DNA of 22,061 bases, taken from positions 1 through 22,061 of the forward strand of contig JBGAIQ010000078.1 of assembly GCA_044225365.1 (NCBI GenBank), given 5' to 3'. Numbering within the stretch: the stretch's first letter is position 1; the number at the start of each line of letters is the position of its first letter. This stretch comes from Planctomycetota bacterium. Lineage in GTDB: Bacteria; Planctomycetota; B15-G4; JADJEK01. Below the pieces are notes generated by a model that was not told the origin of the DNA, did not search any database, and saw only the letters and a list, made by a program, of their open reading frames with translations. Shown here in pieces: positions 1-18,388 of the stretch. The position numbers were made by a program, and so were the translations under genes.

Positions 1-155
1 GTCACGAAGAGGACGAGGCGCTTCACGACGAGGTCGTCCTGCTGGCACACCGCGACGGTGGGTCGCCAGCGATCGAAGCGAGCGGGCCCGAATCCCCCGT
101 CGAGCGTGGTGCCGAGGAATCCGAAGACGGTGACGCCGTGATGGGACTTAGCCAT
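1..155 (-). CDS. rtcR: RtcR, sigma54-dependent RNA-repair transcriptional activator (N-terminal CARF region; partial, continues beyond position 1)
   Basis: Manual translation from the ATG at 155 gives MAKSHHGVTVFGFLGTTLDGGFGPARFDRWRPTVAVCQQDDLVVKRLVLFV. This matches the RtcR N-terminal pattern (FGFxGTxLD...RWRPTxxxCQQ). It is divergent from rtcB/rtcA as in known rtc loci. Absent from the ORF track. Confidence 0.93.
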   Translation of the reverse strand, partial: MAKSHHGVTVFGFLGTTLDGGFGPARFDRWRPTVAVCQQDDLVVKRLVLFV

Positions 156-166
156 GGGGATCAAAA

Positions 167-180
167 CTATCCGATAGGAT
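167..180. promoter_or_regulatory. Putative RtcR upstream activator site (overlapping inverted repeats)
   Basis: CTATCCGATAGGAT contains CTATC-C-GATAG (167-177) and ATCC-GATA-GGAT (169-180). It lies about 105-115 bp upstream of the -24 element, a typical enhancer distance. Assignment to RtcR is inferred. Confidence 0.45.
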
Positions 181-281
181 CGAATACGGGAAGAGTTCGC
201 GCGGTCGTCGATTCGCCAAATTCCGTCGCAAGCCAATTATGTTGATGTGGTTGTGTTTCGCGAGACGAGTCCGGCACCTCG

Positions 282-297
282 CGGCACGTCCTTCGCC
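282..297 (+). promoter_or_regulatory. Sigma54 (RpoN) -24/-12 promoter for the rsr-Y RNA-rtcB-rtcA operon
   Basis: CGGCACGTCCTTCGCC has GG at 283-284, exactly 10 nt, then GC at 295-296 (consensus TGGCACG-N4-TTGC). It is next to a sigma54 activator gene. Predicted +1 near 308. Confidence 0.75.
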
Positions 298-367
298 ATG
301 CCTTCATCGCGCTGCGAACGTGGCGCTTTCCTCAGCGTGTGTCCTCTCGTCTCTCGTCGGTGCTTCC

Positions 368-1975
368 ATGGTGAATCGAACCCTTTTCTCGTCGCTTCTC
401 ACGCGCCTCTTCCCCGCGAGCGACGCGGTGAACGAGGCGGGCGGCAGCGCTTACCGCTTCACGGACGAACACGCGCTCGCGCAACTCGCGGTGACCGGGT
501 GTCTGAACCAGACCTACTACGCGGATGCAGGGGCTCAGCTCTCCGCGGTGCGTTCGCTCGTCGCGAAGGTCACTCCCGAGTTCGTCGGCAAGACCGCCAT
601 CTACGCGAGGGAACGCGGATCCATGAAGGACATGCCGGCGCTGCTCCTCGCCGCGCTCGCATCGCCCTCATCGAATGGGGCGGCTGGCTCAGTCCTCGAG
701 CAAGTGTTCTTCCGCGTTGCGAACGACGGCCGGATGATCCGCAGCTTCGTGCAGATCCTGCGGTCGGGCGCGATGGGTCGTCGCTCGCTCGGCTCGCGGC
801 CGAAGCGACTGGTCCGTCGTTACCTCGAATCCGCAGCGCCCGAAGTCCTCTTTTTCGCCGCGATCGGCAACACACCTTCGCTCTCGGACGTGATCAAGAT
901 GGTCCATCCGCGTCCTGCTGACGCGACGCGCGCGGCGCTCTTCGGGTATCTCGTCGATCGAGATCACGATGAGGCGGCGCTTCCCGAGATCGTGCGCGAG
1001 TACGAAGAGTTCAAGCGGGGCGCGTCGAAGGTGCCGGATGTTCCATTCCGCTATCTCACGAACCTGAAACTGTCGACCGCGACGTGGACGGCGATCGCGC
1101 GCAACGCGTCTTGGACGACGGTGCGAATGAACCTGAACACGTTCCTTCGCCATGGCGTCCTTGCGAACGAATCGGTCGTCCGCGAACTCGCGGCGAAGCT
1201 GCGCGATGGGCGCGAAATTCGACGGGCGAGAGCTCTCCCATACCAGATCCTCGTGGCGCTTCGAAACGTGGATCGTGGTGTACCGGCGGAGTTGCGATCG
1301 GCCCTGCACGATGCCCTCGAGATCGCGACGGCGAACGTGCCAGCGATGACGAAGAAGATCGCGGTGGCGATCGACGTCTCGGGCTCGATGGCTTCGCCGC
1401 TGACCGGCGTTCGAAAGGGTGCGACTTCACAGGTCCGCTGCGTCGACGCCGCGGCGCTCTTCGCTGCCTCGATCGTTCGGAAGAACCCGTCGGCGAGCGT
1501 CGTCGCGTTCTCGACCGAGGCGCGTCGCGTCGCACTCGAACCGAAGGACACGATCGCGACGAACACGACGCGGATCAGTTCGCTTCTCGGTGGCGGCACG
1601 AGCGTGAGTTCCGCGCTCGGGCTGCTGAACGCGGAGCGCGAAGCGCCGGACCTCGTCGTGATCTTCTCGGACAATCAGTCGTGGGTCGACACGCGCACGA
1701 GCGGAGCGACGGCGCTGCTCGAGGAGTGGAGTCGCCTGAAGCGTGCGAATCGAAGTGCGCGTCTCGTGCTCGTCGATCTGCAGCCGTACACGACGACCCA
1801 GGCCTTGGATCGCGTCGACGTGATGAACGTCGGCGGGTTCTCCGATTCGGTGTTCACCGTGATCGCCGAGTTCGGAAGCGGGCGAGTGGATGGCCTCGTG
1901 AAGCGAATCGAGGCCGTCGACCTGGACCGCAAGGTGAGCCCTTCCACCGTGAACGTAGAAGTGAAGAACGAATGA
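368..1975 (+). CDS. rsr: Ro60/Rsr-like TROVE-domain RNA-binding protein with C-terminal vWA domain (535 aa)
   Basis: N-terminal NEAGGSAY...HALAQLAVTGCLNQTYYA, KMVHPRP and RMNLNTFLRHGV motifs; MIDAS residues DVSGSM, GGGT, SDNQ. Start moved from 239 to the ATG at 368, because the longer ORF would run through the sigma54 promoter. Confidence 0.92.
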   Translation: MVNRTLFSSLLTRLFPASDAVNEAGGSAYRFTDEHALAQLAVTGCLNQTYYADAGAQLSAVRSLVAKVTPEFVGKTAIYARERGSMKDMPALLLAALASPSSNGAAGSVLEQVFFRVANDGRMIRSFVQILRSGAMGRRSLGSRPKRLVRRYLESAAPEVLFFAAIGNTPSLSDVIKMVHPRPADATRAALFGYLVDRDHDEAALPEIVREYEEFKRGASKVPDVPFRYLTNLKLSTATWTAIARNASWTTVRMNLNTFLRHGVLANESVVRELAAKLRDGREIRRARALPYQILVALRNVDRGVPAELRSALHDALEIATANVPAMTKKIAVAIDVSGSMASPLTGVRKGATSQVRCVDAAALFAASIVRKNPSASVVAFSTEARRVALEPKDTIATNTTRISSLLGGGTSVSSALGLLNAEREAPDLVVIFSDNQSWVDTRTSGATALLEEWSRLKRANRSARLVLVDLQPYTTTQALDRVDVMNVGGFSDSVFTVIAEFGSGRVDGLVKRIEAVDLDRKVSPSTVNVEVKNE

Positions 1976-2106
1976 GAGCGGGTTCGGCGGATGCCGTCGG
2001 GACTCCATGGGCAAACCGGGGCAACCCGGGATCGGGTTCGAATCCCGAGGCTCGCCGCGAGGCGAGTCGTGTCCCGCAATTCCTTGCCGCCGAATCCGCT
2101 CTGTTT
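1975..2106 (+). ncRNA. Y RNA-like (YrlA-related) structured ncRNA
   Basis: 16-bp terminal stem 1975-1990/2087-2102 (one G-U) followed by GTTTT. Inner stem CGGGAC 1998-2003/GTCCCG 2071-2076. GCAA hairpin 2016-2029. T arm TCGGG-TTCGAAT-CCCGA 2032-2048. 8-bp GCGA-capped hairpin 2049-2068. Located between Ro60 and rtcB, where Salmonella carries yrlB/yrlA. Exact ends uncertain. Confidence 0.82.
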
Positions 2107-2130
2107 TCCACGTTCGAATGAGACACAATC

Positions 2131-2172
2131 GGCCGGACGGCGGGCGAATGCCTCGTCGCCCGTCGTCCGGCC
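2131..2172 (+). ncRNA. 17-bp hairpin carrying a Ro60-binding-type motif (mini Y RNA or cis element in the rtcB leader)
   Basis: GGCCGGACGGCGGGCGA (2131-2147) pairs with TCGCCCGTCGTCCGGCC (2156-2172), one G-U, 8-nt loop. It contains GGCGAATG (2143-2150), matching the bacterial Y RNA motif GNCGAAN(0-1)G. The hairpin is directly visible; its function is inferred. Confidence 0.55.
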
Positions 2173-2191
2173 CCTTCTCCCGAGATTCGTC

Positions 2192-3415
2192 ATGACGCAG
2201 TACATCGAGATCGAAACGGCCAACGTGCCGATCAAGGCCTGGATCCAGGGTGTCGAAGCCGACCCCAACGCAATCCAGCAACTTCGAAACGTGGCGAGCT
2301 TGCCCATCGTGCACTCGCACGTGGCCGCGATGCCGGACGTCCACTTCGGGATCGGCGCGACGGTGGGCAGCGTCATCCCGACGAAGCGGGCGATCATCCC
2401 GGCCGCTGTGGGAGTCGACATCGGTTGCGGCATGATGGCGGTGAAGACGTCGCTGCGCGCGGAGGATCTGCCCGACGACCTGAAGGCGATCCGCTCCGCC
2501 ATCGAGGCGGCCGTGCCGCATGGGCGCACCGATCAGGGCGGTCGCAACGACAAGGGCTCGTGGCGTTCCGAGCTGCCGGCGCGCGTCGCGGCGGCGTGGA
2601 AGCTGCTCGAGAAGGACCAGCGTCGCATCGTCGAGAAGCACAAGAAGCTCGACGCCGGCCGCAGCGCGGGCCAGCTCGGTACGCTCGGCAGCGGCAATCA
2701 CTTCATCGAGATGTGTCTCGACGAGAGCGGAAGCGTGTGGATCGTGCTGCATTCCGGCTCGCGCGGAATCGGCAACAAGATCGGCACGCACTTCATCGCT
2801 CTCGCGAAGAAGGACATGGGCCGTCAAGTGGCGAACCTTCCGGATCGCGATCTCGCGTATCTCGAGGAGGGCAGCGCGCACTTCGACGACTACGTCTTCG
2901 CGGTCGACTGGGCGCAGCGCTATGCGCGGCAGAATCGCGAGATCATGATGGCGCACGTGCTCGAAGCGCTCGCGCTGCGCGAGGAGCTGCCGCACTTCAC
3001 GACCGGCGAGATCGCGGTGAACTGTCACCACAACTACGTGCAGCTCGAGCGGCACTTCGGCGAAGACGTGTTCGTCACCCGCAAGGGCGCCGTGCGAGCC
3101 GGCGCGGGCGAACTCGGCATCATCCCGGGATCGATGGGCGCGCGCACCTACATCGTGCGCGGCCTCGGCAATCCCGACAGCTACGAGTCATGCAGCCACG
3201 GCGCAGGGCGCGTGCTCTCGCGCAGCGAGGCGAAGCGGCGCTACAGCGTGGAGGACCACGTGGCCGCCACGGCCGGCGTCGAGTGTCGCAAGGACTCCGG
3301 TGTCCTCGACGAGACCCCGATGGCCTACAAGGACATCGACAAGGTGATGGAGGCGCAGAAGGATCTGGTCGACGTCGTCCACACGCTGAAGCAGGTCGTA
3401 TGCGTGAAGGGGTAA
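2192..3415 (+). CDS. rtcB: RtcB 3'-phosphate/5'-OH RNA ligase (407 aa)
   Basis: Motifs MPDVHFGIGATVG, VGVDIGCGM, GTLGSGNHF, HSGSRG, NCHHNY, RKGA, IPGSMG, SCSHGAGR (guanylylated His) and DETPMAYKDI. Start set at the ATG at 2192; the 1991 extension runs through the ncRNA. Confidence 0.97.
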   Translation: MTQYIEIETANVPIKAWIQGVEADPNAIQQLRNVASLPIVHSHVAAMPDVHFGIGATVGSVIPTKRAIIPAAVGVDIGCGMMAVKTSLRAEDLPDDLKAIRSAIEAAVPHGRTDQGGRNDKGSWRSELPARVAAAWKLLEKDQRRIVEKHKKLDAGRSAGQLGTLGSGNHFIEMCLDESGSVWIVLHSGSRGIGNKIGTHFIALAKKDMGRQVANLPDRDLAYLEEGSAHFDDYVFAVDWAQRYARQNREIMMAHVLEALALREELPHFTTGEIAVNCHHNYVQLERHFGEDVFVTRKGAVRAGAGELGIIPGSMGARTYIVRGLGNPDSYESCSHGAGRVLSRSEAKRRYSVEDHVAATAGVECRKDSGVLDETPMAYKDIDKVMEAQKDLVDVVHTLKQVVCVKG

Positions 3416-3466: not shown

Positions 3467-4495
3467 ATGATCGTGATCGATGGTTCGGAGGGCGAGGGTG
3501 GCGGACAGGTGTTGAGATCCTGTCTTTCCCTCGCCCTCCTGACGGGGCGCGAGTTCCACATTCATTCCATTCGTGGCAGGCGCGAGAAGCCGGGATTGAA
3601 GCGACAGCATCTCGTCTGCATCGAGGCTGCGGCGGCGATCGGAACTGCACGCGTCGATGGCGCGAGCGTCGATTCGCGAGAAGTTGTGTTCCGACCGGGG
3701 AAGGTACGGGGCGGCGTTCACCACTTCCCGATCGGCACCGCGGGAAGCACGTCGCTCGTGCTCCAGACCCTGCTCCTGCCTTTGCTCCTCGCCAACGAGC
3801 CGTCGACGCTGGCGATCGAGGGTGGCACGCACAATCCGCTCGCGCCGCCCTATCCCTTCCTCGAGCAGACCTTCCTCCCGATCCTCCGGAAGATGGGCGC
3901 TCGGGTCGCGACGAAGCTCGTGCGGCCTGGGTTCTTCCCGGCGGGAGGTGGCAGGATCGAGGTCGCGATCGAGCCGTCGACGCTGGCGTCGATCGATCTC
4001 GTCGAGCGCGGCGAATGGCGGATCGAGCGGGCGCTCGCCTACGTCGCGAACCTTCCGCTGTCGATCGCGGAACGTGAGCTCGCGGCGATCCGAAAGCGCC
4101 TCGCGATCGATCGTTCGTCGTGTCACGTCGAAGCCACTCGGGAGACGCCGTCGCCCGGGAACTTCGTCACGATCGACGTACGGACCTCGAGTCACGTCGA
4201 GGTGTTCACCGGGTTCGGTGAACGCAGGAAGAGCGCAGAGTGGGTGGCGAACGAAGCCGTCGACCAGGTTCGTGCTTTTCTCGGGACCGGCGTCCCGGTC
4301 TCCGAGCACCTCGCCGATCAACTGCTCCTGCCCTTCGCGGTCGCGGGCGGGGGGAGCTTCCTCTGCGGAGAGCCGAGCGAGCACGCGCGGACGAACGCTG
4401 CGATGATCGAACGCTTCCTTCCCGTGCGCATCTCGTTCGATCGCGACGAGTCGACGCCGTTGCCGATCCATCGCTGCCGCGTCGTGCGGTCCTGA
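3467..4495 (+). CDS. rtcA: RtcA RNA 3'-terminal phosphate cyclase (342 aa)
   Basis: MIVIDGSEGEGGGQVLR, PGLKRQHL, GGTHN..APP, GFFPAGGG, HLADQL and SEHARTN (adenylylated His position). GGAG at 3455-3458 precedes the ATG at 3467. Confidence 0.96.
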   Translation: MIVIDGSEGEGGGQVLRSCLSLALLTGREFHIHSIRGRREKPGLKRQHLVCIEAAAAIGTARVDGASVDSREVVFRPGKVRGGVHHFPIGTAGSTSLVLQTLLLPLLLANEPSTLAIEGGTHNPLAPPYPFLEQTFLPILRKMGARVATKLVRPGFFPAGGGRIEVAIEPSTLASIDLVERGEWRIERALAYVANLPLSIAERELAAIRKRLAIDRSSCHVEATRETPSPGNFVTIDVRTSSHVEVFTGFGERRKSAEWVANEAVDQVRAFLGTGVPVSEHLADQLLLPFAVAGGGSFLCGEPSEHARTNAAMIERFLPVRISFDRDESTPLPIHRCRVVRS

Positions 4496-6541
4496 TCAGC
4501 GGGGGTAGAGGACGAGTCGCCCGAGCGATGCATCCTCGACGCGTCGGAAGCGGGAGAGGAACGGCTCGCCGAGCACGCCTTCCGCATAGGGGGCCGCGTA
4601 GCCGTCGACGACCACCGCCGGCACTCGCGCCGTCGACACGTTGCCGATCACGATCGATGCGAGTTGCACCGTCGGTACCTCGGGCTGCTGCGGATCGGTG
4701 TGGAACTTGATGCGCGGGAGGCTCGGCAACGAGTAACCCGCGCCGACGACGGCGGACGCAGGGAGGACGCTCGTCTTCTCCGTGGGGTCGAGCAGGAGAT
4801 TCACCGACACCGATCCGTTGATGCGCGCCGACACGACGAGTCGAGTGTCGCCGGGCTGGAAGTCGATGACGATCGCGCCCGGACCGCCGGCGAGATCGCG
4901 CGCCCGGTCCGCCTTCACCCGCATCTCCCCAGCGACCTTGGGATCGACGAGTGCCGCTTCGCCGAAGATCTGCGCCGCTTCCTCGAAGCGGCGCGCTTCC
5001 ATGAGGTAGTCGCCCGCCCGAGCGCGCAGGAGCGCATTGCTCGGGAAGAAGCGGCGCTGCTCGAGGAGCAGCTGGATCGCGTCGTTCACGAGTCCTTGCG
5101 CCTTGCGCTGCGCGGCGCCCTCGATGAGCAGTCCCGCGCCCTCGCGCAGGAGTTCGTCTCGCTTCATCGGGTTCTTCACGGCAGCGGTGTTGAAACAGGC
5201 GATCGCACTGACGAGGTCGCCGGTCGCGGCCAGAGCGCGACCCTTCGCGGTCCACAGCTCCGCATCCTCGGGCAATCGCTGTAGCACCTCGGTGAGGATC
5301 GCATTCGCATTCGCCGCGGTGCCGTTCGCGAGCGCATCGCGCGCGATCTCGAGCGTTGCGGAGGAGAGATCCGTCGCCACGTCGGGGAGGAGGCGCGGCT
5401 CCTCGGCGGTGAGCGCGAGCATGAGCCTTACCGCTTCCTCGAACTGTCGAGCGTCGATCAACTGGCGCACGCGCTTCAGTCGAGCCGCGGGCGCACCGGG
5501 TCCTGAACTCCGCAGGAAGAACTCGAGGGGGACGGCGGCGTTGCCGAGCTTTGCGAGCGGCGCTGCCGGATAGGTCGGGAGTGAGTCGGTGCCCTTCTTC
5601 GATTGGAGTGCGAAGACGCGCCCTTCCGCATCGATGGCGACGCCACGGAACTTCGGCTCGGGTTCAGGGCCGTATCGCGGCCCGCCGCTGATTCGATCGA
5701 TCCGTCCGGGCTGGAGTTTGCCCGTGGCTTCCCTCCACTTGCTGTCGTCGACCGGACCGAGCCAAGTGACGTCGACCGGACCCCCGATCGGTGCGTACGG
5801 GATCTCGAGCGCTTTGAACGGCTTCGCCGTCGTCACTTCGAGCAGGGAGAGATCGAACGCCGCGTCCTGCCCCGCGACTCCCGTCACGGGGAGTTCGACG
5901 CCGCTCGCATCCACGACGACGAGGGAGGCAGCGCCGGCCAGCACTCCGAGCGTCGCAACGACCCGCTTCTCGCCACAGGCGAAGCAAGGTGCTTCGTCGA
6001 GTTCCGCGCCGCTCTCGTCGCGCGCGATCACACGCAGGATCGAGGGACCAAAGCGCGCTCGTAGTCCGGCGGGCGTCGTGTCGAGCGGTTCCGTGGGAAC
6101 CGGCGCGGGTTCGGGGAGCTTCACTTCCTCGCGGACCGGCGCGGTCGGAACATCGGTTTGGGGGACGTAGACCACCTGTGGCTTCTCGGCGACCTTGCGC
6201 TCGAGTTCGGCGATCATCGCGCGGAGCCTTTGGAGGTCGGCAGCTTCGTTCTCGAGGGCATCGATCCGCGACGTCACGAAGTGAACCGTCGCCGCGCCGC
6301 CGACGAGCACTCCCACGAGCAGGCCGACGACGAGGATCGCGATCCACGGCGCGCCATGCCCATCGCGTTGACTCTTCGGCACGTCCTGTTTCGCCCCGCA
6401 GCGATCGCAGTAGACGGCGTCGTCCCGGATCGCCTCGAGGCAGTTGCGACAACGTTGCAATTCGTGCTTGCCGAGCGGCGGCTTGTCGTCGCCGACCGGA
6501 GCGACCGGTCCGAACAATGGGACGGAATCGTCGTCGTCCAT
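4496..6541 (-). CDS. Membrane-anchored protein: zinc ribbon, TM helix, coiled coil, degenerate trypsin-like domain, TPR repeats, C-terminal retropepsin-like domain (681 aa)
   Basis: CRNC...CDRC; hydrophobic WIAILVVGLLVGVLVGG; DLSLL and IDAEGRV trypsin-like scaffold; TPR-like helices (LPEDAELWTAKGRAL, FPSNALLRARAGDYL); VSARING..LLLDPT..GVLGEPFLSRF aspartyl-protease-like C terminus. Confidence 0.7.
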   Translation of the reverse strand: MDDDDSVPLFGPVAPVGDDKPPLGKHELQRCRNCLEAIRDDAVYCDRCGAKQDVPKSQRDGHGAPWIAILVVGLLVGVLVGGAATVHFVTSRIDALENEAADLQRLRAMIAELERKVAEKPQVVYVPQTDVPTAPVREEVKLPEPAPVPTEPLDTTPAGLRARFGPSILRVIARDESGAELDEAPCFACGEKRVVATLGVLAGAASLVVVDASGVELPVTGVAGQDAAFDLSLLEVTTAKPFKALEIPYAPIGGPVDVTWLGPVDDSKWREATGKLQPGRIDRISGGPRYGPEPEPKFRGVAIDAEGRVFALQSKKGTDSLPTYPAAPLAKLGNAAVPLEFFLRSSGPGAPAARLKRVRQLIDARQFEEAVRLMLALTAEEPRLLPDVATDLSSATLEIARDALANGTAANANAILTEVLQRLPEDAELWTAKGRALAATGDLVSAIACFNTAAVKNPMKRDELLREGAGLLIEGAAQRKAQGLVNDAIQLLLEQRRFFPSNALLRARAGDYLMEARRFEEAAQIFGEAALVDPKVAGEMRVKADRARDLAGGPGAIVIDFQPGDTRLVVSARINGSVSVNLLLDPTEKTSVLPASAVVGAGYSLPSLPRIKFHTDPQQPEVPTVQLASIVIGNVSTARVPAVVVDGYAAPYAEGVLGEPFLSRFRRVEDASLGRLVLYPR

Positions 6542-9870: not shown

Positions 9871-9982
9871 GTCGTTCTTCCTTCTTGACGCACTCGAAGG
9901 CATCCAGTGTATCGGCTGCCCAGCGGATCGCGGGATCCCTCCGCCTCGCGGAATCGCGACGCATTCGATAGGGTCATGGTGA

Positions 9983-11152
9983 ATGAACACCACGGCTTCC
10001 GAATCGAACCCGGAATCGAACGGCTCGTCGAACGCGACTCGCGTCGGGCTCATCCTGATCGCGGCCGCCGTCCTCGCGATCGTGCTCGACAATTCGCCGC
10101 TCGCTTGGCTCTACGACGATCTGCTCGATACGCCGTTCTCGATCCGTCTCGGATCCCTCGGGCTCGAGAAGCCGCTCCTGCTTTGGATCAACGACGGCTT
10201 GATGGCGGTGTTCTTCCTCCTCGTCGGGATCGAGATCAAGCGCGTGCGGATCGAAGGACAGTTCCAGCAAGTCCGGAAGGCGATCTTGCCGCTCTTCGCG
10301 GCGCTCGGCGGCATGGTCGTCCCGGCCCTGTTCTATTCGGCGTTCAATCACGCCAACTCGGACGCACTGCGTGGCTGGGCCATCCCCTGCGCGACGGACA
10401 TCGCCTTCGCACTCGGTGTCCTGTCGCTCGCGGGATCGAAGATTCCCACGTCCATCCGTTCGTTCCTCACGGCTGTCGCCGTGATCGACGATCTCGGCAG
10501 CATCGTCATCATTGCCGCCTTCTACACGGCGAGTCTCTCGTTCCCGGCGCTCGTGATCGCGGGTGTCTGTTGCGCCGCGCTCGCGATCATGAATCGAGCC
10601 GGAGTCACGAGGATCGGCGCCTATCTGCTCATCGGCATCGTGCTGTGGGTTGCGGTACTGAAGTCGGGCGTTCACGCAACCCTTGCCGGCGTCGTGCTCG
10701 CGCTCGCCATTCCGCTGCGGGCGAAGGACGCGCATGGCGAATCGCCCGCGATCGCGCTCGAGCACCAACTGAAACCCTGGGTCGATTACTTCATCCTCCC
10801 CGTCTTCGCGTTCGCGAACGCAGGCCTACCGCTGCTGCATCTCGACGCACGCGCCGCGCTCGACACGATTCCGCTCGGGATCACGACGGGACTCGTCATC
10901 GGCAAACCGATCGGCATCGCCGGCTCGACGTGGCTCGCGAATCGACTCGGCATCGCGTCTCCACCCGATGGCGCGACGTGGAAGCACGTGCTCGGCGCGG
11001 GCCTTCTCGGCGGCATCGGATTCACGATGAGCCTGTTCATCGGCTCACTCGCATTCGACAGCCCGCTCCTGCTCGAAGAGGTTCGCCTCGGAGTGCTCTG
11101 CGCGTCGTTACTCGCGGGAATCCTTGGGTATGGAATGTTGAAGCGCGCTTGA
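9983..11152 (+). CDS. nhaA: Na+/H+ antiporter NhaA (389 aa)
   Basis: WINDGLMAVFF, ATDIAFA, AVIDDLG (paired Asp), KSGVHATLAG, GKPIG and GIGFTMSLFI motifs. Confidence 0.95.
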   Translation: MNTTASESNPESNGSSNATRVGLILIAAAVLAIVLDNSPLAWLYDDLLDTPFSIRLGSLGLEKPLLLWINDGLMAVFFLLVGIEIKRVRIEGQFQQVRKAILPLFAALGGMVVPALFYSAFNHANSDALRGWAIPCATDIAFALGVLSLAGSKIPTSIRSFLTAVAVIDDLGSIVIIAAFYTASLSFPALVIAGVCCAALAIMNRAGVTRIGAYLLIGIVLWVAVLKSGVHATLAGVVLALAIPLRAKDAHGESPAIALEHQLKPWVDYFILPVFAFANAGLPLLHLDARAALDTIPLGITTGLVIGKPIGIAGSTWLANRLGIASPPDGATWKHVLGAGLLGGIGFTMSLFIGSLAFDSPLLLEEVRLGVLCASLLAGILGYGMLKRA

Positions 11153-11156
11153 ACCG

Positions 11157-13652
11157 ATGCGAACCCTCTGCCTTCTCATCCTCCCGCTGATCGTCTGCGC
11201 TGCCGCGGCGCGACCCGCCGCGGCGCGATTTGAAATCGCCGCGGTGAACTTCGGGCAAGCGCCGATCACGCCGCGCGCGCTCGATGCTTCGGGAAACGAG
11301 GTGGAAGGCGCGCTCACGATGGAACGCGTACCGATCGCTTCGTTCGGTGGCGGCGAATCGATCGTGCTGCATGCGAAGGCATCGCAGCCCATCGCGCGGA
11401 TCGAGCTGTTCCAGCGCCGACCGCTCGCGGGTGTGAGCCCTGTCGACTCGAGCGAGATGCGGGTGATGTACTTTCCCGTGCGCCTGCCCGCATCCTCCGG
11501 ATCCTCCGAATCGCCCCCCTCGATCGGATGCGTCGTCGGGGCGCTCTCGAATCACGTCGAATCCGCGCACCTGCTCGCGATCTCGAGGGCCGATCGAACC
11601 GCGGCCCTCGTACTGGAAGGCGAGGGCGCGACGATCGCGGTCGATGTCGACGAGACCGGCACAGTCCTCGGAACCGTCTCGATCGATTGCTTTTCGTTGG
11701 GAGCCCGGTCGGGCGCCTTCGAGGCCAAGGTCTCGTGTCTCGCCGCGCCCGATGCGATCGATGCGATCGAACTGCTGCGGGCGCGGGACCGTCACGTTCG
11801 TAGCGACGGCGATGGCGTCGCGCTCGCATCGATCACCGTGGCGAACGCGCCGCGCGCCTACTCGCTCGACCGCTGGTTCGTGGCCCACGAAGACGGCACG
11901 TACCTCATCGACGTCCTCGCGCGCGGCGCGCAGGGCCGGCCGCTCGACCTGTTCCGTGGCGATGGCGTGCCTTCGCTGTGGGCGTCGGTCGCCGAGGGCT
12001 CGAAGTGTCGCACGCTCCTCGTCGATCCCTCGATCGAAGCGCGCACCGTCGCGATCGTGGGACGCGACATCCTTCCGGGAGCCGGCGAGAGGTTCGCGGT
12101 GGAGGATCTCGACACCGGCGAAGCGCTCGGTCACGGTCGCGACACGGTGCTCGTTCCATTGCCGTCGGGTGGGCGACGGTTCTTGCAGTTCTCGGCCGTG
12201 AAGAGCGATTCGTCGCCCACACCGAAAATCCTCCTCGTTCACGGGCCTTCGCCGCGCGAACGCTTCGAACTCGAAGAGGTCTTGCCGTACGCGCCGGATC
12301 TCGCCGCACGCGCGCTCGGTGCGCTGCACGAGAACGGAATCGTCTTCGTTGCTCTGAAGGGAGGCGACGATCTCGAAACGGTTCCCGCCCCTCTCGCGTC
12401 GCTCATGATCCCGACGATCGTGCCGTATCACGCCGTGCGTCGCTCGGAGACATTGAGAGGCGGCCTCGAGAGAATCGCGCAGTTCGCCTCCAACGTCGAA
12501 TGGGCGCTCGGATTTCCGCCCCAGGACGTCGACTCGAGGGACTGGCTCGTCTGTCTCGAGGCGGGCTTCTACGCGACTCCCCTCCAGCCGCGGCTCGTCG
12601 ACGGGATGCCGGCCGCGCGCGGATTCGCCGTGTTCATGAATCCGGGGATCGTCGTCGTGACGTCGGGTCTCTCCGAGTCCGAACGTAATCAGATGGCGCA
12701 GGGCGTTCGCGATCCGGTTGCGGCGACGGACGTCCTGCGACGAGTCGTCGACGCCCAACAAGCCGTGCGTCTGTCGCGTGAGCCGACGGGATTGTTCAAA
12801 GCGCTCTCGCGCCTCCCGCGTTGGACGCAGGACGATTTCGTGCCCGGCGATCCGATCGTCATGATGCGCTGGGCCGCGATGGTGAGTGGCAAGACTCAGC
12901 GCCGATTGCGGTCCTTGCCCGTCGCGAAGGGCGCGCCCTCGCTCCCCGAGGACGTGTTCGAATTCACGTCGCCGATCCAATTCGCGCTCGATCTGCCGCA
13001 GCCGTTCGCGCAACCGATCGTCGCCGTCGTGCGCTCGGTGAAGGAGGACAGCGGCGACGTGACCCTCGCGTACGAGGATCGCCCGCTCGAGAGCATCGCG
13101 CGGTCGAAGGACGAGCGAGGACTTTGGCGCGAGGAGATCTTCGTCCTGCCCCCGGAGTGGGCCAAGGGCCAGGTCCGGGTGGCGCTCTCCCTCATGGCGC
13201 AAGGTGGCATCGGTCGCGTCGCCCGTGTCGCCTTCTTCGCGAGTCGAAGCGACGACGGCATCCCGCTAGCGCTCCTCACGCCACTCGCGATCGCGCCGAA
13301 TCCGGCCGCGGTGGGAGTTTGCCATCGCATCGACGGGACGCCGCTCCTCGATCGCGGGGAGGGGTACTTCAACGGCCTCGAGATGCTCGCGGGGAGCGAG
13401 GTGGTGTACGAACTGTCGGGTGACGCGAAGCCAAGGCGGCTCGAATTCGGAGCCACCGCCACGGGAACGCCGACCGTCCTCGTGGTGCGGGCGGATGGCG
13501 TCGACAAGGCCCGCTACGAACTGTCACCGAACGCGAAGGAGCCTCTGCGGGCGCGGCTCGAGATCGTCGGGGCGAAGCGGCTGCGGTTCCTCGTCGAGAC
13601 CGCGGCGGGAAGCGGCGGATCGGTCTTCGTCCTGGATCCGCGCGTTCGCTGA
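11157..13652 (+). CDS. Large secreted protein with C-terminal NPCBM/NEW2-like domain (831 aa)
   Basis: Signal peptide MRTLCLLILPLIVCAAAA. The C terminus IDGTPL...FNGLEMLAGSEVVYEL...VRADG...LEIVGAKRLRFLV...DPRV fits the NPCBM pattern. The rest is unrecognised. Starts 4 nt after nhaA. Confidence 0.6.
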   Translation: MRTLCLLILPLIVCAAAARPAAARFEIAAVNFGQAPITPRALDASGNEVEGALTMERVPIASFGGGESIVLHAKASQPIARIELFQRRPLAGVSPVDSSEMRVMYFPVRLPASSGSSESPPSIGCVVGALSNHVESAHLLAISRADRTAALVLEGEGATIAVDVDETGTVLGTVSIDCFSLGARSGAFEAKVSCLAAPDAIDAIELLRARDRHVRSDGDGVALASITVANAPRAYSLDRWFVAHEDGTYLIDVLARGAQGRPLDLFRGDGVPSLWASVAEGSKCRTLLVDPSIEARTVAIVGRDILPGAGERFAVEDLDTGEALGHGRDTVLVPLPSGGRRFLQFSAVKSDSSPTPKILLVHGPSPRERFELEEVLPYAPDLAARALGALHENGIVFVALKGGDDLETVPAPLASLMIPTIVPYHAVRRSETLRGGLERIAQFASNVEWALGFPPQDVDSRDWLVCLEAGFYATPLQPRLVDGMPAARGFAVFMNPGIVVVTSGLSESERNQMAQGVRDPVAATDVLRRVVDAQQAVRLSREPTGLFKALSRLPRWTQDDFVPGDPIVMMRWAAMVSGKTQRRLRSLPVAKGAPSLPEDVFEFTSPIQFALDLPQPFAQPIVAVVRSVKEDSGDVTLAYEDRPLESIARSKDERGLWREEIFVLPPEWAKGQVRVALSLMAQGGIGRVARVAFFASRSDDGIPLALLTPLAIAPNPAAVGVCHRIDGTPLLDRGEGYFNGLEMLAGSEVVYELSGDAKPRRLEFGATATGTPTVLVVRADGVDKARYELSPNAKEPLRARLEIVGAKRLRFLVETAAGSGGSVFVLDPRVR

Positions 13653-13743: not shown

Positions 13744-14454
13744 ATGAAGAAACCCTTGATCCTCGTCGTGGACGACGAACCGCATCTCGTCGATCTACTG
13801 AAGCATCATCTGACGCGTGAGCACTACGAGGTCGATGTCGCAAAAGACGGCGAATCGGCCATCGCGAAGGCGCGCAAACGGCTTCCCGATCTCGTGGTCC
13901 TCGATCTGATGTTGCCCGGACTCGACGGACTCGAGGTCTGTCGCAGACTGCGCTCCGAACCGCGCACCGAACACGTCCCGATCATCATGCTGACGGCGAA
14001 GGCCGAAGAGACCGACGCCGTGATCGGCCTGGCGCAAGGCGCCGACGACTACGTCCGCAAACCCGTCGGCATGCGCGAACTGCTCGCCCGTATCAGCACG
14101 CGCTTGCGAGCGGCGGCCGCTCAAAGAGCCGAGGAAGAGCGCAAGGTGCTCCGCTTCGGCGATCTCGTCATCGATTCCGTGAAGCACGAAGTCGAACTCA
14201 AGGGCGAGTCGATTCGCCTCACGATGACGGAGTTCAAACTGCTGCGCCACCTCGTTCGCAACGCTGGGCGCGCGTTCTCGCGCAACGACCTGCTCGATGC
14301 GGTGATCGCGCCCGATACCGTCGTCGTCGACCGCAACGTGGACGTCCACGTCGCGACGCTGCGCAAGAAGCTCGGCGAGTACGGTCCGTACATCGAGACG
14401 ATTCGAGGCCTTGGATACAAGTTTCGCGAGCAACCCGTCGCGTCGACCCCCTGA
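13744..14454 (+). CDS. phoB: OmpR/PhoB-family response regulator, probable PhoB (236 aa)
   Basis: ILVVDDE, LDLMLP (phospho-Asp), IIMLTAK, GADDYVRKP, LTMTEFKLL, RNVDVHV..LRKKL and IETIRGLGY motifs; adjacent to a kinase and pst genes. Start set at the ATG at 13744. Confidence 0.85.
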   Translation: MKKPLILVVDDEPHLVDLLKHHLTREHYEVDVAKDGESAIAKARKRLPDLVVLDLMLPGLDGLEVCRRLRSEPRTEHVPIIMLTAKAEETDAVIGLAQGADDYVRKPVGMRELLARISTRLRAAAAQRAEEERKVLRFGDLVIDSVKHEVELKGESIRLTMTEFKLLRHLVRNAGRAFSRNDLLDAVIAPDTVVVDRNVDVHVATLRKKLGEYGPYIETIRGLGYKFREQPVASTP

Positions 14455-14463
14455 CGCAACCGA

Positions 14464-16296
14464 GTGATCGGAAGCAGCGCCGCAGCGAGAGAGAATAGAA
14501 ACGTGTTGTTGCCCGAGACCTTCTCGAGTCGAGTCGCGCTCGCGTTCTCCGTCGTGGTCGCGGCTTTGCTCGTCGCCAGCGCGTGGGTCGTCGAGCGAAG
14601 GTCGCAGACGTTCCATGAAGCGGAGGTGAGGCGTCGCCTCGACGCCATCGCCGTCGCCACGAGCGACGACGCCAAGGCGGTCTTCGAAGGAAGGATGACC
14701 CGCGAGGCGTTCGGCGAGAAGATCGCGAAGCTGGTGGCGGAGACGGGCGTTCGCTTCACGCTCATCCGCGCCGACGGCTCGGTGGTCGCGGACAGTTCGA
14801 CGTTCCCGGTCGAGAATCACGGCGATCGCCCCGAATTCCTCGAGGCGATGAAGAGCGGTCGCGGCAGTAGCGCGCGTCAGAGCAATACGACGATGCACCC
14901 GATGTCGTACGACGCGTGGCGCATCGACTCCGACCACGGACCGCTCGGCGTGTTGCGAGTCTCCGCCTTCCTCGATCAGCTCGATGCCGAGGTGGCGATC
15001 CTGCATCAGGCCGTGATCTACACCGCGATCGGCGTCGTCCTGCTGGGGATCCTGTTCGCCTTCATCACGTCTCGCGTGCTCGCAAGACCGCTGGAATCGA
15101 TCGCGTCGGCGGCCGACGCGGTGGCGAGCGGTGCGAAGAGCAGCGCGATCCGCGTCGAGGGACCGCGCGAGGTGCGCCGCCTCGCGGATGCGATCAACGC
15201 GATGGCGGATGAACTGCGCGCACAGATGACGAGCATCGAACGCGCCCGCGCCGAGACCGAGTCGATCCTCGAGTCGCTGAAGGAAGGTGTCGTCGCGATC
15301 TCTCGCGGCGAGCGTCTGATGCGGATGAACGTCGCTGCGGCTCGACTCCTCGGGATCGATCGCCCGCTCGATCCCGGCGAGCAACTCTGGCGAGCCGTCC
15401 GTTTCCCCGAGCTCGAAGCGGCGCTGCGTCAGGTCATCCTCGAAGGCCACGAATCGGTCCATATCGACGCGAATTCGCCCCGCAACGACGGATCCGTGAT
15501 CTCCCTCACGATCACGCCGCTCGGCAACGGCGGCGGCGCCGTCGCGATCCTCTCCGACGTGACCGACATCCGTCGCCTCGAGAAGGTGCGCAGCGATTTC
15601 GTCGCCAACGTCTCCCATGAGATGCGGACCCCGCTCGCCGTCATCATGGGCGCGATCGAAACGCTCGAGGATCCGACTCTCGGCGATGCGGATCAGCGCA
15701 AGTTCCTCGAGATGGCCCGCCTCAACGCGGATCGCATGAAGAACATCGTCGAGGACCTGCTCGAACTCTCGAAGATCGAGGCCGAGGGCGACACGATCGC
15801 GCTCGAGCCCATGAACATCGAGACGCCGATCCGAAACTCGATGAGCGCGCTCCAGTACGCCGCGGACACGAAGCACATCCACGTCGAACTCCATCCGCCG
15901 CCGCAATCGCCGATCCTCGTCCAGGGCAACATGAAGCGGCTCGAGCAAGTGTTCTCGAATCTGATCGACAACGCGATCAAGTACACGCCCGAGGGCGGCA
16001 ACGTTCGCGTGCGGATCGATCTCACGGACAAGGAAGTTTGCATCGAGGTCGAGGACACGGGGATCGGCATCCCGCAGCATTCGCTCTCGCGGGTCTTCGA
16101 ACGCTTCTACCGCGTCGACAAGGGTCGCTCGCGCGACATGGGCGGCACCGGCCTCGGCCTCGCGATCGTGAAGCATGCGACTCGCGCTCACGGCGGCAGA
16201 GTGACGGTCCGCAGCGAAGAAGGCCGCGGAACGACGTTCGGCGTGAGTCTGCCCCGCGTGTCGGTCGGGCGACCGGCTCCCCAACCGGTGGATTGA
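14464..16296 (+). CDS. phoR: Sensor histidine kinase, probable PhoR (2 TM, extracytoplasmic domain, HAMP, PAS, HisKA, HATPase)
   Basis: FVANVSHEMRTPL (H box), NLIDNAIKYT, DTGIGI, FERFYRVDKGRSR and GGTGLGLAIVKH motifs. The true start may be the GTG at 14503. Confidence 0.87.
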   Translation: MIGSSAAARENRNVLLPETFSSRVALAFSVVVAALLVASAWVVERRSQTFHEAEVRRRLDAIAVATSDDAKAVFEGRMTREAFGEKIAKLVAETGVRFTLIRADGSVVADSSTFPVENHGDRPEFLEAMKSGRGSSARQSNTTMHPMSYDAWRIDSDHGPLGVLRVSAFLDQLDAEVAILHQAVIYTAIGVVLLGILFAFITSRVLARPLESIASAADAVASGAKSSAIRVEGPREVRRLADAINAMADELRAQMTSIERARAETESILESLKEGVVAISRGERLMRMNVAAARLLGIDRPLDPGEQLWRAVRFPELEAALRQVILEGHESVHIDANSPRNDGSVISLTITPLGNGGGAVAILSDVTDIRRLEKVRSDFVANVSHEMRTPLAVIMGAIETLEDPTLGDADQRKFLEMARLNADRMKNIVEDLLELSKIEAEGDTIALEPMNIETPIRNSMSALQYAADTKHIHVELHPPPQSPILVQGNMKRLEQVFSNLIDNAIKYTPEGGNVRVRIDLTDKEVCIEVEDTGIGIPQHSLSRVFERFYRVDKGRSRDMGGTGLGLAIVKHATRAHGGRVTVRSEEGRGTTFGVSLPRVSVGRPAPQPVD

Positions 16297-16310
16297 CTTC
16301 GCCCTCGACC

Positions 16311-16332
16311 GATCTTCACGAGATCTTGACGA
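16311..16332 (+). promoter_or_regulatory. Pho-box-like 11-bp tandem direct repeat upstream of pstB
   Basis: GATCTTCACGA (16311-16321) and GATCTTGACGA (16322-16332) are 10/11 identical. An 11-bp period is characteristic of PhoB/PhoP sites. Confidence 0.65.
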
Positions 16333-16414
16333 TCCGACTGCACTCTGACGCCACATCGAGCTGACGGCGACGAACTCTCGTCGCGAGCAACTCGTGCGGA
16401 CGTTCGAGGAGCGC

Positions 16415-17323
16415 ATGATCCAGGTCCATCGCAGTCTCGCAGCATCGACGAACGGTCTGCCCGAATCGATGGAGACGGCGCGCGGCCGGATCTCGCTCGA
16501 GTCGCCGCGGACCGCCAACGCGACGTTGCCCGGCGAACGCCGCTCGATCCTCGATGTCGATGCCGAGCGCGCCGAGAAGATCCGCATCCAGTCCCTCGAT
16601 CTGTTCTATGGCGCCAAGCAGGCGCTCTTCGGCGTCGGCCTCGTCGTCTACGAACGCTCGGTCACCGCGCTGATCGGCCCGTCGGGCTGCGGCAAGTCGA
16701 CCCTGCTCCGCACGATCAATCGCATGAACGACCTGGTCGACGGCGTTCGGATCGTGGGCAAGGTCGAGCTCGACGGTGAGGACATCTATCACCGCGACGT
16801 CGAGGTCGAGATCCTGCGCCGTCGCATCGGCATGGTGTTCCAGAAGTCGAACCCTTTCCCGAAGTCGATCTACGAGAACGTGGCCTACGGACCGCGCATC
16901 CTCGGGATCAAGGACAAGGCCGTCCTCGACGAGATCGTCGAGACCAGTCTCAAGCGCGCGGCGCTGTGGGACGAGGTGAAGGATCGCCAGAAGGACAGCG
17001 CTCTTGGACTCTCCGGTGGTCAGCAGCAGCGACTGTGCATCGCGCGCGCGCTCGCGACCGATCCCGAAGTGTTGCTGATGGACGAACCCGCTTCCGCGCT
17101 CGACCCGATCTCGACCAACAAGATCGAGGACCTGATCCACGACCTGAAGAGCCGGTACACGATCGTCATCGTCACGCACAACATGCAGCAGGCCGCGCGC
17201 GTGTCCGACCGGACCGCGTTCTTCCTGAACGGCGTCATCGTGGAAGAAGGCCCGACCGAGCAGATCTTTAGCACGCCGCAGAAGAAGGAAACCGAGGACT
17301 ACGTCACGGGAAGGTTCGGTTGA
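16415..17323 (+). CDS. pstB: Phosphate ABC transporter ATP-binding protein PstB
   Basis: [52 protein letters not shown] and [10 protein letters not shown] motifs. Start uncertain: GTG 16394, ATG 16415 (after GAGGAG) or later. Confidence 0.95.
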
Positions 17324-17391
17324 GCCTTTTCGACGCAGGATCCTCACGACCCGAACAACGCAACCGACCCGCAAGAAACAGGAAAACAGAT

Positions 17392-18372
17392 ATGAAGCTC
17401 ACAGGACTCGTTCTTTGCTCCCTCGCCGTCAGCGCCGTGGCATTCGCTTATGCGTCCGTGGCCGCTCCGCAGGACACGATCCATGGCAAGAAGTACGAGA
17501 AGCCCGCCGACGTCAAGATCACGGGCACGCTCGATTCCGTCGGCTCGGACACGATGATCAATCTGATGACGAACTGGGCGGAGGGCTTCAAGCGCTACTA
17601 CCCCGACGTCAAGCCGCAGATCGAGGGCAAGGGCTCGGCAACGGCGCCCGTCGCACTGACCGGCGGGACCGCGCACTTCGGCCCGATGTCGCGCGACATG
17701 AAGAAGGAGGAGTCGGACGACTTCGAGAAGAAGTTCGGCTACAAGCCGACCGCGATCCGCACGTCGCTCGACGCGCTCGCGGTGTTCGTCAACAAGGACA
17801 ATCCGATCGAGAGCCTGACGTTCGAGCAGGTCGACGCGATCTTCTCGAAGACCCGCAAGCAGGGCGGCAAGGAGGACATCACCACGTGGGGCCAGCTCGG
17901 CCTCAAGGGTGACTTCGCGTCGAAGCCCATCAGCCTCTTCGGCCGCAATTCGGCGTCCGGCACCTACGGCTACTTCAAGGAACACGCGCTCAAGAAGGGC
18001 GACTTCCGCGACACCGTGAAGGAGCAGCCCGGCTCGTCGGCGGTCGTCCAGGGCATCTCCGAGGATCGCTTCGCGATCGGTTACTCGGGAATCGGCTACC
18101 TCACCCCGAGCGTGCGCGCCGTCCCACTCGCGCCGGCCGCCGGCAAGAAGGCCGTCGCTGCGACGAACGAGAACGTGCTTTCCGGTGAGTACCCGCTCAG
18201 CCGCTACCTGCAGATCTACGTGAACAAGGCGCCGGGGAAGCCCCTCGATCCGATGGTGAAGGAGTTCCTGAAGTTCGTCTTGTCGCGCGAGGGTCAGGAG
18301 ATCGTCGAGAAGGAAGGGTACATGCCGCTCCCCGACAGCATCATCGCAGCCGAGCTGAAGAAGCTCGACTGA
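17392..18372 (+). CDS. pstS: Phosphate ABC transporter substrate-binding protein PstS (326 aa)
   Basis: Signal peptide; VGSDT, GKGSATA, MSR, DALAVFVN, GRNSASGTYGYF and YPLSRYL motifs. ATG at 17392 follows AGGA. Confidence 0.93.
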   Translation: MKLTGLVLCSLAVSAVAFAYASVAAPQDTIHGKKYEKPADVKITGTLDSVGSDTMINLMTNWAEGFKRYYPDVKPQIEGKGSATAPVALTGGTAHFGPMSRDMKKEESDDFEKKFGYKPTAIRTSLDALAVFVNKDNPIESLTFEQVDAIFSKTRKQGGKEDITTWGQLGLKGDFASKPISLFGRNSASGTYGYFKEHALKKGDFRDTVKEQPGSSAVVQGISEDRFAIGYSGIGYLTPSVRAVPLAPAAGKKAVAATNENVLSGEYPLSRYLQIYVNKAPGKPLDPMVKEFLKFVLSREGQEIVEKEGYMPLPDSIIAAELKKLD

Positions 18373-18388
18373 GATCGTACTTCGCAAA

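Follow-up and report, generated by a model that had tools for sequence, protein, structure and literature searches.

Among the described systems closest to the present locus is the Salmonella operon rsr-yrlBA-rtcBA, whose published layout stands under RtcR, as given in the available text of PMC7790460. Bacterial Y RNAs carry the published motif GNCGAAN0-1G, and hairpin-type second Y RNAs without a tRNA-like module have been reported for S. Typhimurium (YrlB), M. smegmatis (YrlB) and D. radiodurans (Yrn2), according to the accessible part of the work of Chen et al. (2014, PMC4201824). For Ro60, of which Rsr is the bacterial orthologue, the available portion of another study states that the protein contacts mainly the 5' strand of the Y RNA helix, and it cites a crystal structure of Xenopus Ro60 with a Y RNA stem fragment, PDB 1YVP (10.1101/312249).

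The locus analyzed here shows the operon layout of the Salmonella system (available text of PMC7790460). It is situated in a stretch of 22,061 nt, the whole of which is called the window in the following, and its gene order is a divergent rtcR, a sigma-54-like promoter, rsr, a YrlA-like Y RNA, a 42-nt hairpin, rtcB and rtcA (Table 1). Hence, the host operon of the hairpin is an ordinary rsr-Y RNA-rtcBA RNA-repair operon of the RtcR/sigma-54 type, i.e. a known setting. The site 5' of rsr is a putative sigma-54 promoter by comparison with the consensus TGGCAC-N5-TTGC, and its letters are preserved, there with TGGCAC, in a second copy of the region on another contig of the same assembly (C62:24837-25733, 84% identical to window positions 1-882). 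This second copy extends from rtcR across the promoter region into the first part of rsr, with Rsr being 90% identical over 172 aa, and breaks off at the contig end, while the contig of the window begins at the corresponding point. The divergent rtcR is whole on C62, where it is a minus-strand ORF of 549 aa with the Pfam domains RtcR (PF06956, 248 bits) and Sigma54_activat (156 bits). The duplicate rtcR-rsr copy either stems from two related strains that were binned together or represents a second locus, and may be the reason why both contigs end here.

Table 1. Features of the locus and the short-class elements of other loci (window coordinates unless a locus is named).
Feature	Position	Strand	Basis
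rtcR, 5' part	1..155	-	contig begins within gene
Sigma-54-type promoter-like site GGCAC-N5-TCGC, 5' of rsr	283..296	+	read by eye
rsr, bacterial Ro60 orthologue	368..1975	+	Pfam vWA_Ro60 62.9 bits, TROVE 24 bits
Full-length YrlA-like Y RNA	1975..2102	+	16-bp closing stem, GGCGGAUG motif, 96-nt interior
42-nt hairpin lacking an interior: closing stem of a second Y RNA with its candidate Rsr-binding module	2131..2172	+	sequence, fold, motif comparison
GGCGAAUG, matches GNCGAAN0-1G	2143..2150	+	motif from the available text of PMC4201824
AATGC, common to both split-alignment pieces; likely deletion/insertion junction	2147..2151	+	X4 record 16
rtcB RNA ligase	2192..3415	+	Pfam RtcB 434 bits
rtcA RNA 3'-phosphate cyclase	3467..4495	+	Pfam RTC 241.5 bits, RTC_insert 54 bits
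Short-class elements in other rsr loci	L027-L041, L049, L079, L082-L090 (e.g. L031:4119-4192), L017:4090-4274, L024:4131-4204, L091:4037-4125		

Some further observations concern the surroundings of the two RNAs. An ATG at 1991 on the plus strand opens a 474-aa frame (1991-3415) that is in phase with rtcB and crosses the YrlA-like RNA as well as the hairpin, and the Pfam RtcB domain begins at residue 30 of the 407-aa form starting at 2192. With this in-phase ATG, a gene caller could give an over-long RtcB that conceals both RNAs. Convergent to rtcA, positions 4496-6541 of the minus strand encode a 681-aa protein that contains TPR repeats and, at its C-terminus, an aspartyl protease domain of the retropepsin-like kind (Pfam Asp_protease_2), and positions 17320-20677 of the plus strand harbour a PstS-like phosphate-binding protein followed by a 762-aa ABC permease. 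Several long ORFs, among them 9907-11190 and 13795-16587, gave no Pfam match, and the remaining window looks unremarkable.

The first RNA behind rsr appears as a full-length Y RNA of the YrlA type. It shows GGCGGATGCC at 1986-1995 and CCTTGCCGCC ahead of its 3' arm, and its interior carries the T-arm-like GGUUCGAAUCC. The GGCGG variant in this element pairs with CCGCC, which represents a compensated change of the stem-closing pair. The Rfam model YrlA (RF02553) matches with 33.1 bits and an E value of 2.2e-5, its gathering score of 69 not being reached; no Rfam family reached its gathering score anywhere in the window, and the YrlA model gave no match in the whole genome at E values up to 0.01.

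The 42-nt hairpin starts 156 nt past the rsr stop codon and 28 nt behind the first Y RNA, and lies on the strand of rsr (+), as bacterial Y RNAs do. Its letters are GGCCGGACGGCGGGCGA-AUGCCUCG-UCGCCCGUCGUCCGGCC, for which RNAfold predicts a stem of 17 bp (16 Watson-Crick pairs and one G-U pair) with the 8-nt loop AUGCCUCG at -39.8 kcal/mol; the z-score is -4.54, and none of 200 dinucleotide shuffles was as stable. The apex GGCGAATGCCTCGTCGCC at 2143-2160 reads GGCGAAUG-CC-UCG-UCGCC, and as in Y RNAs in general the stem is formed by the ends of the element and bears GNCGAAN0-1G on its 5' strand. The interior module of a Y RNA was sought in the hairpin and is absent, the 8-nt terminal loop being all that stands there. 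Likewise, neither the T nor the D arm of a tRNA-like domain was found, and the Rfam YrlA model did not match over 2131-2172 at E values up to 10. With regard to the YrlB/Yrn2 type, the element is a hairpin that bears the motif, five of its eight loop letters being pyrimidines. No terminator site was called at the hairpin; the stem is followed by CCCUUCUCCCGAG with no T-run, and the rtcB ATG (2192) stands 19 nt behind it. The preliminary description was accurate in what it reported here, namely the hairpin with its 17-bp stem, the apex reading and the match to GNCGAAN(0-1)G, an outer stem that is not a copy of the upstream one, and the rtcB start codon 19 nt on without an intervening U-tract.

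A 76-nt query containing the hairpin found one match in the 6.53-Mb genome, so the element is not a dispersed repeat of the REP type, a possibility that had been raised before. Moreover, both genome strands were scanned for GNCGRAUGC when followed by YUNG and a pairing strand that gives a stem of 8 or more pairs, which gave five hits; two of them are the neighbouring elements described here, with stems of 16 and 17 bp, and the stem lengths of the remaining three are 8-10 bp. In the window, the 10-mer GGCGRATGCC is present at two sites compared to 0.27 expected from shuffles, both sites lying directly past rsr and on the same strand. GC-rich hairpins are common in this genome of 65% GC, where 209 stem/loop registers with at least 12 perfect pairs were counted (one hairpin may count several times). 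Therefore, what goes beyond chance is the apex motif together with its position, not the stem as such.

How far this element resembles those of other bacteria can be judged from a survey of rsr loci. Scans with the Rsr protein of genome contigs (51 loci) and metagenome contigs (49 loci) provided 99 usable loci from many phyla, in which Rsr is about 50% identical (43-53%) to Rsr of the window. In 78 of these 99 loci rtcB follows 3' of rsr on the same strand, some of the remaining ones being cut by contig ends. With the element definition used for the genome scan, 95 distinct Y-RNA-like elements were found outside the window, and their consensus is GGCGAAUGCC on the 5' strand and CUUG-UCGCC on the 3' strand. 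The corresponding strands of the hairpin are GGCGAAUGCC and CUCG-UCGCC, with the deviating C occurring at that 3' position in 17 of the 95 elements. Two to six Y-RNA-like elements are frequently arrayed between rsr and rtcB, commonly with spacers of about 20-40 nt, and tandem Y RNAs ending about 30-40 nt 5' of rtcB were commonly seen in the fetched loci. Closer to the window, a search with the Rsr protein found no rsr in the 11 other genomes of the family, and a DNA search of 40 relatives returned nothing relevant, the one match being 37 nt long (G034, E 2.3e-4). The conservation comparison is thus made with loci of which none exceeds 53% Rsr identity, none of the 11 family genomes having rsr.

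The interiors of the 95 elements are bimodal in size, with 31 being 42-64 nt and 64 being 71-217 nt long, and 21 of the 64 long ones fall between 110 and 120 nt. Interiors below 42 nt were found in none of the 95 elements of the 99 other loci, the hairpin of the window having one of 8 nt. The short class (Table 1) shows no tRNA-like domain; it folds into a closing stem that bears GGCGAAUG and, past an internal loop, one further helix, which often contains GGGACUAC-like letters. None of seven short elements in the seven loci scanned was matched by the Rfam YrlA model at E values up to 0.01. In L031, L088 and L091 the short element ends about 30 nt 5' of rtcB, and in L031 and L088 it is the sole one found between rsr and rtcB (with the Rfam check covering L031 only). 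The short class seems to lack a family model and may be the equivalent of YrlB. In the Burkholderiales loci, an 11-bp stem UCGCGUGGCGA/UCGCCACGCGG is nearly invariant and the interior is variable. Very long Y RNA arrays 3' of rsr were observed in L017 (4098-5096, two short elements and four YrlA matches in Rfam) and L024 (4143-5259, one short element and four YrlA matches in Rfam); these arrays precede rtcB or stand without rtcB. Collectively, the survey indicates that rsr loci usually have Y RNA arrays and that a common short class is missed by the Rfam YrlA model, which is relevant to annotation, because gene callers can extend rtcB across such RNAs.

The history of the hairpin became accessible through sequencing data of near relatives. 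The stretch is nearly complete only in two runs of one sample that may be its source, X1 and X2, with 0.99 and 0.84 of its sampled words, respectively, and contigs of three other studies and of one RNA run were aligned to window positions 1500-2800. Record 16 of X4, a contig of 2517 nt that belongs to a study different from that of the probable source run, is 93-97% identical to the window and aligns in two colinear pieces. The first pairs window 1503-2151 with record positions 736-1384 (17 differences), and the second pairs window 2147-2779 with record positions 1-633 (46 differences). Between both pieces 102 letters remain unaligned, exactly at the hairpin loop, and the two pieces have AATGC in common. 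The long form in this contig, which is known by length and position only, would accordingly share the closing stem and have an interior of 4+102+9 = 115 nt, which is the modal size of a full Y RNA. Record 11 of X3 covers 2147-2373 and then continues leftwards with 47 unlike letters, which would fit the presence of this long form in a third study as well. Record 10 of X3 extends from 1946 to 2165, i.e. 14 letters beyond the junction at a bridging threshold of 31 letters, and from it the short form may also be present outside the source sample. The X6 contigs end at 2120 and resume at 2193, leaving the loop uncovered. Among the differences listed, no well-supported base difference falls into the two arms of the hairpin. 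The RNA run X20 contains 0.05 of the sampled words and has no bearing on expression; its contigs are less than 95% alike and cover conserved parts of rsr and rtcB only, none lying over the hairpin. As a separate observation, record 10 of X3, a contig of 329 nt, omits window 1845-1945, i.e. 101 bases at the 3' end of rsr that the X4 contig keeps, and this gap may be a deletion variant truncating Rsr in one population.

On these grounds the hairpin is probably the internal-deletion stub of a second Y RNA that has lost its interior. The 102 extra loop letters of the relative, the flanking AATGC and the resulting 115-nt interior at the modal size make a deletion stub the likeliest origin. It is further supported by the match of the module to the consensus of the 95 elements on both strands, and by the context, since the divergent rtcR is followed by rsr, rtcB and rtcA, and Y RNAs in tandem are usual at loci of this kind. 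According to this model, a second Y RNA gene would have stood in tandem 3' of the YrlA-like Y RNA in an operon of the order rsr, Y RNAs, rtcB and rtcA. Its interior, the effector module, would then have disappeared when about 107 nt were deleted between two AATGC repeats, an event by which the internal-loop strands AUGCC and CUCG would have been fused into the present 8-nt loop. The stub might still be transcribed within the operon RNA and be able to bind Rsr as an effector-less remnant. We infer from their length and position that the 102 letters are a Y RNA interior, and hence that a deletion rather than an insertion took place. Transcription of the stub as part of the operon is likewise inferred, being expected for a hairpin that lies inside the operon without a terminator-like tail. 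Binding of Rsr is plausible by analogy, because the stub keeps the published Ro60 recognition feature, the conserved 5' strand of the helix. However, an identical signature would result if extra DNA had been inserted into an ancestral mini hairpin, e.g. a small mobile element that duplicates 5 bp of its target. The perfect 17-bp stem and the intact consensus loop strands also look as they would in a selected minimal element, and the 14 letters of X3 record 10 past the junction allow for a short form outside the source sample.

Two further ideas were tried and rejected. First, viral contigs were scanned with the pattern GGCGAATGC-N0-14-YTYGTCGCC, which matched at least 118 stretches, and 80 loci were examined. 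Their stems extend over 5-8 pairs only (50, 23, 5 and 2 loci, respectively), and in none of the 80 loci was rsr, rtcB or rtcA present within 1.5 kb. With stems of at most 8 bp and none of these genes nearby, such matches are attributed to chance and not regarded as related elements. Second, the hairpin could have occluded the rtcB start. Partition-function folds in three contexts showed no pairing of the hairpin with the start codon, the unpaired probability of A2192 and U2193 being 0.56-0.87.

Selection as a minimal element would mean that the 42-nt hairpin is a working minimal Y RNA, kept for binding Rsr without tethering an effector, and serving either as a gate or decoy that competes with the long Y RNA or as a cis operator of the rsr-rtcBA transcript. 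This we regard as unlikely. The full GNCGAAN0-1G motif is there, its partner strand is intact and the stem is perfect, which would suit such a function. The published view, as found in the available text of 10.1101/312249, is that Ro60 makes its contacts mainly with the 5' strand and that Y RNAs can gate Rsr. Moreover, short Y RNAs lacking a tRNA-like domain are widespread (31 of 95) and can be the sole element found between rsr and rtcB, as in L031 and L088. On the other hand, the size of the hairpin is unique, no interior of the 95 others being shorter than 42 nt, all short-class elements retain the second helix past the internal loop, and the nearest relative possesses the long form. The apex-pattern matches on viral contigs provide no parallel, being due to chance only, and the rtcB start codon is predicted to be mostly unpaired (A2192 0.78-0.87). 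It is a doubtful but specific idea that the stub serves as a natural effector-less Rsr ligand, either released from or retained on the operon RNA, which occupies Rsr and recruits no partner. Such a ligand would adjust the amount of Rsr left to the full Y RNA or link Rsr binding to what becomes of the rtcBA message, and the long/short polymorphism between near-identical strains would let the element change naturally from a tethering Y RNA to a pure gate.

Still less probable appears the reverse history, according to which the mini hairpin is older, was never a full Y RNA, and the 102 letters of the relative were inserted later with a 5-bp duplication. The AATGC repeat flanking the extra DNA indeed resembles a target-site duplication. 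However, an insertion would leave unexplained why the resulting 115-nt interior coincides with the mode of full Y RNAs; the loop consists of exactly two consensus internal-loop strands, which is hard to derive except from a Y RNA, and no mini hairpin occurs in the 99 other loci. Hardly credible, finally, is a generic hairpin of the mRNA (a stabiliser of its 5' end, a processing site or a weak terminator) bearing the motif by chance, for which the 209 registers of at least 12 perfect pairs (several per hairpin possible) and a weak Rfam match to the plain hairpin model Scr3202 (23 bits, E 0.52) could be quoted, against the excess of GGCGRATGCC directly past rsr, the restriction of 16-17-bp stems in the genome-wide element scan to these two elements and the missing T-run, or an assembly artefact, against the 0.99 and 0.84 of sampled words present in X1 and X2.

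The preliminary description had interpreted the hairpin as the Rsr-binding module of a Y RNA with its interior absent and, beyond that, as the candidate for a new mechanism. The first part stands, given the consensus match on both strands and the 8-nt loop. The second is unsupported; hairpin-type second Y RNAs are already described in the available text of PMC4201824, and tandem Y RNAs before rtcB are common. The comparison of the apex across orthologous loci, which had been proposed as a check, speaks against a dedicated mini element, with 0 of 95 interiors below 42 nt and 102 additional loop letters in a near relative. Short elements without a tRNA-like module stand ahead of rtcB elsewhere, and therefore an Rsr-binding hairpin of this sort is not new in kind. 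The hairpin is probably a previously unseen, degenerate form of a known kind of Y RNA. Should the stub bind Rsr, these data would contain no smaller natural Ro60 ligand, and it could serve binding and structural studies as a minimal substrate. Because near-identical strains differ in having the long or the short form, the contribution of the effector module could be tested cleanly.

Among the known systems, YrlA (RF02553) shares with the hairpin the closing-stem consensus GGCGAAUGCC ... CUUG-UCGCC and the place between rsr and rtcB, but the hairpin differs in having no tRNA-like effector module and no Rfam match at E values up to 10. The short class is closer in that it combines a motif-bearing closing stem with the lack of a tRNA-like domain, some copies standing about 30 nt 5' of rtcB, whereas all its members keep the internal loop and the second helix, often with GGGACUAC-like letters. 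YrlB and Yrn2 are, like the hairpin, adjacent to rsr on the same strand, located beside a tRNA-like Y RNA and equipped with GNCGAAN0-1G (available text of PMC4201824). They have been found bound to Rsr in experiments and are apparently longer, YrlB of M. smegmatis with a possible T-arm (same source). In the hairpin of the window, compared by description, the motif stands directly at the terminal loop, past which the element does not extend. A further difference is the order of the elements, the YrlA-like RNA coming first and the stub second in the window as compared to rsr-yrlBA-rtcBA in Salmonella (available text of PMC7790460). Finally, PDB 1YVP shows that an isolated Y RNA stem can suffice as a Ro60 ligand in vitro, as cited in the available part of 10.1101/312249; the RNA in that structure was made in the laboratory from an animal Y RNA, whereas the hairpin of the window is a natural sequence.
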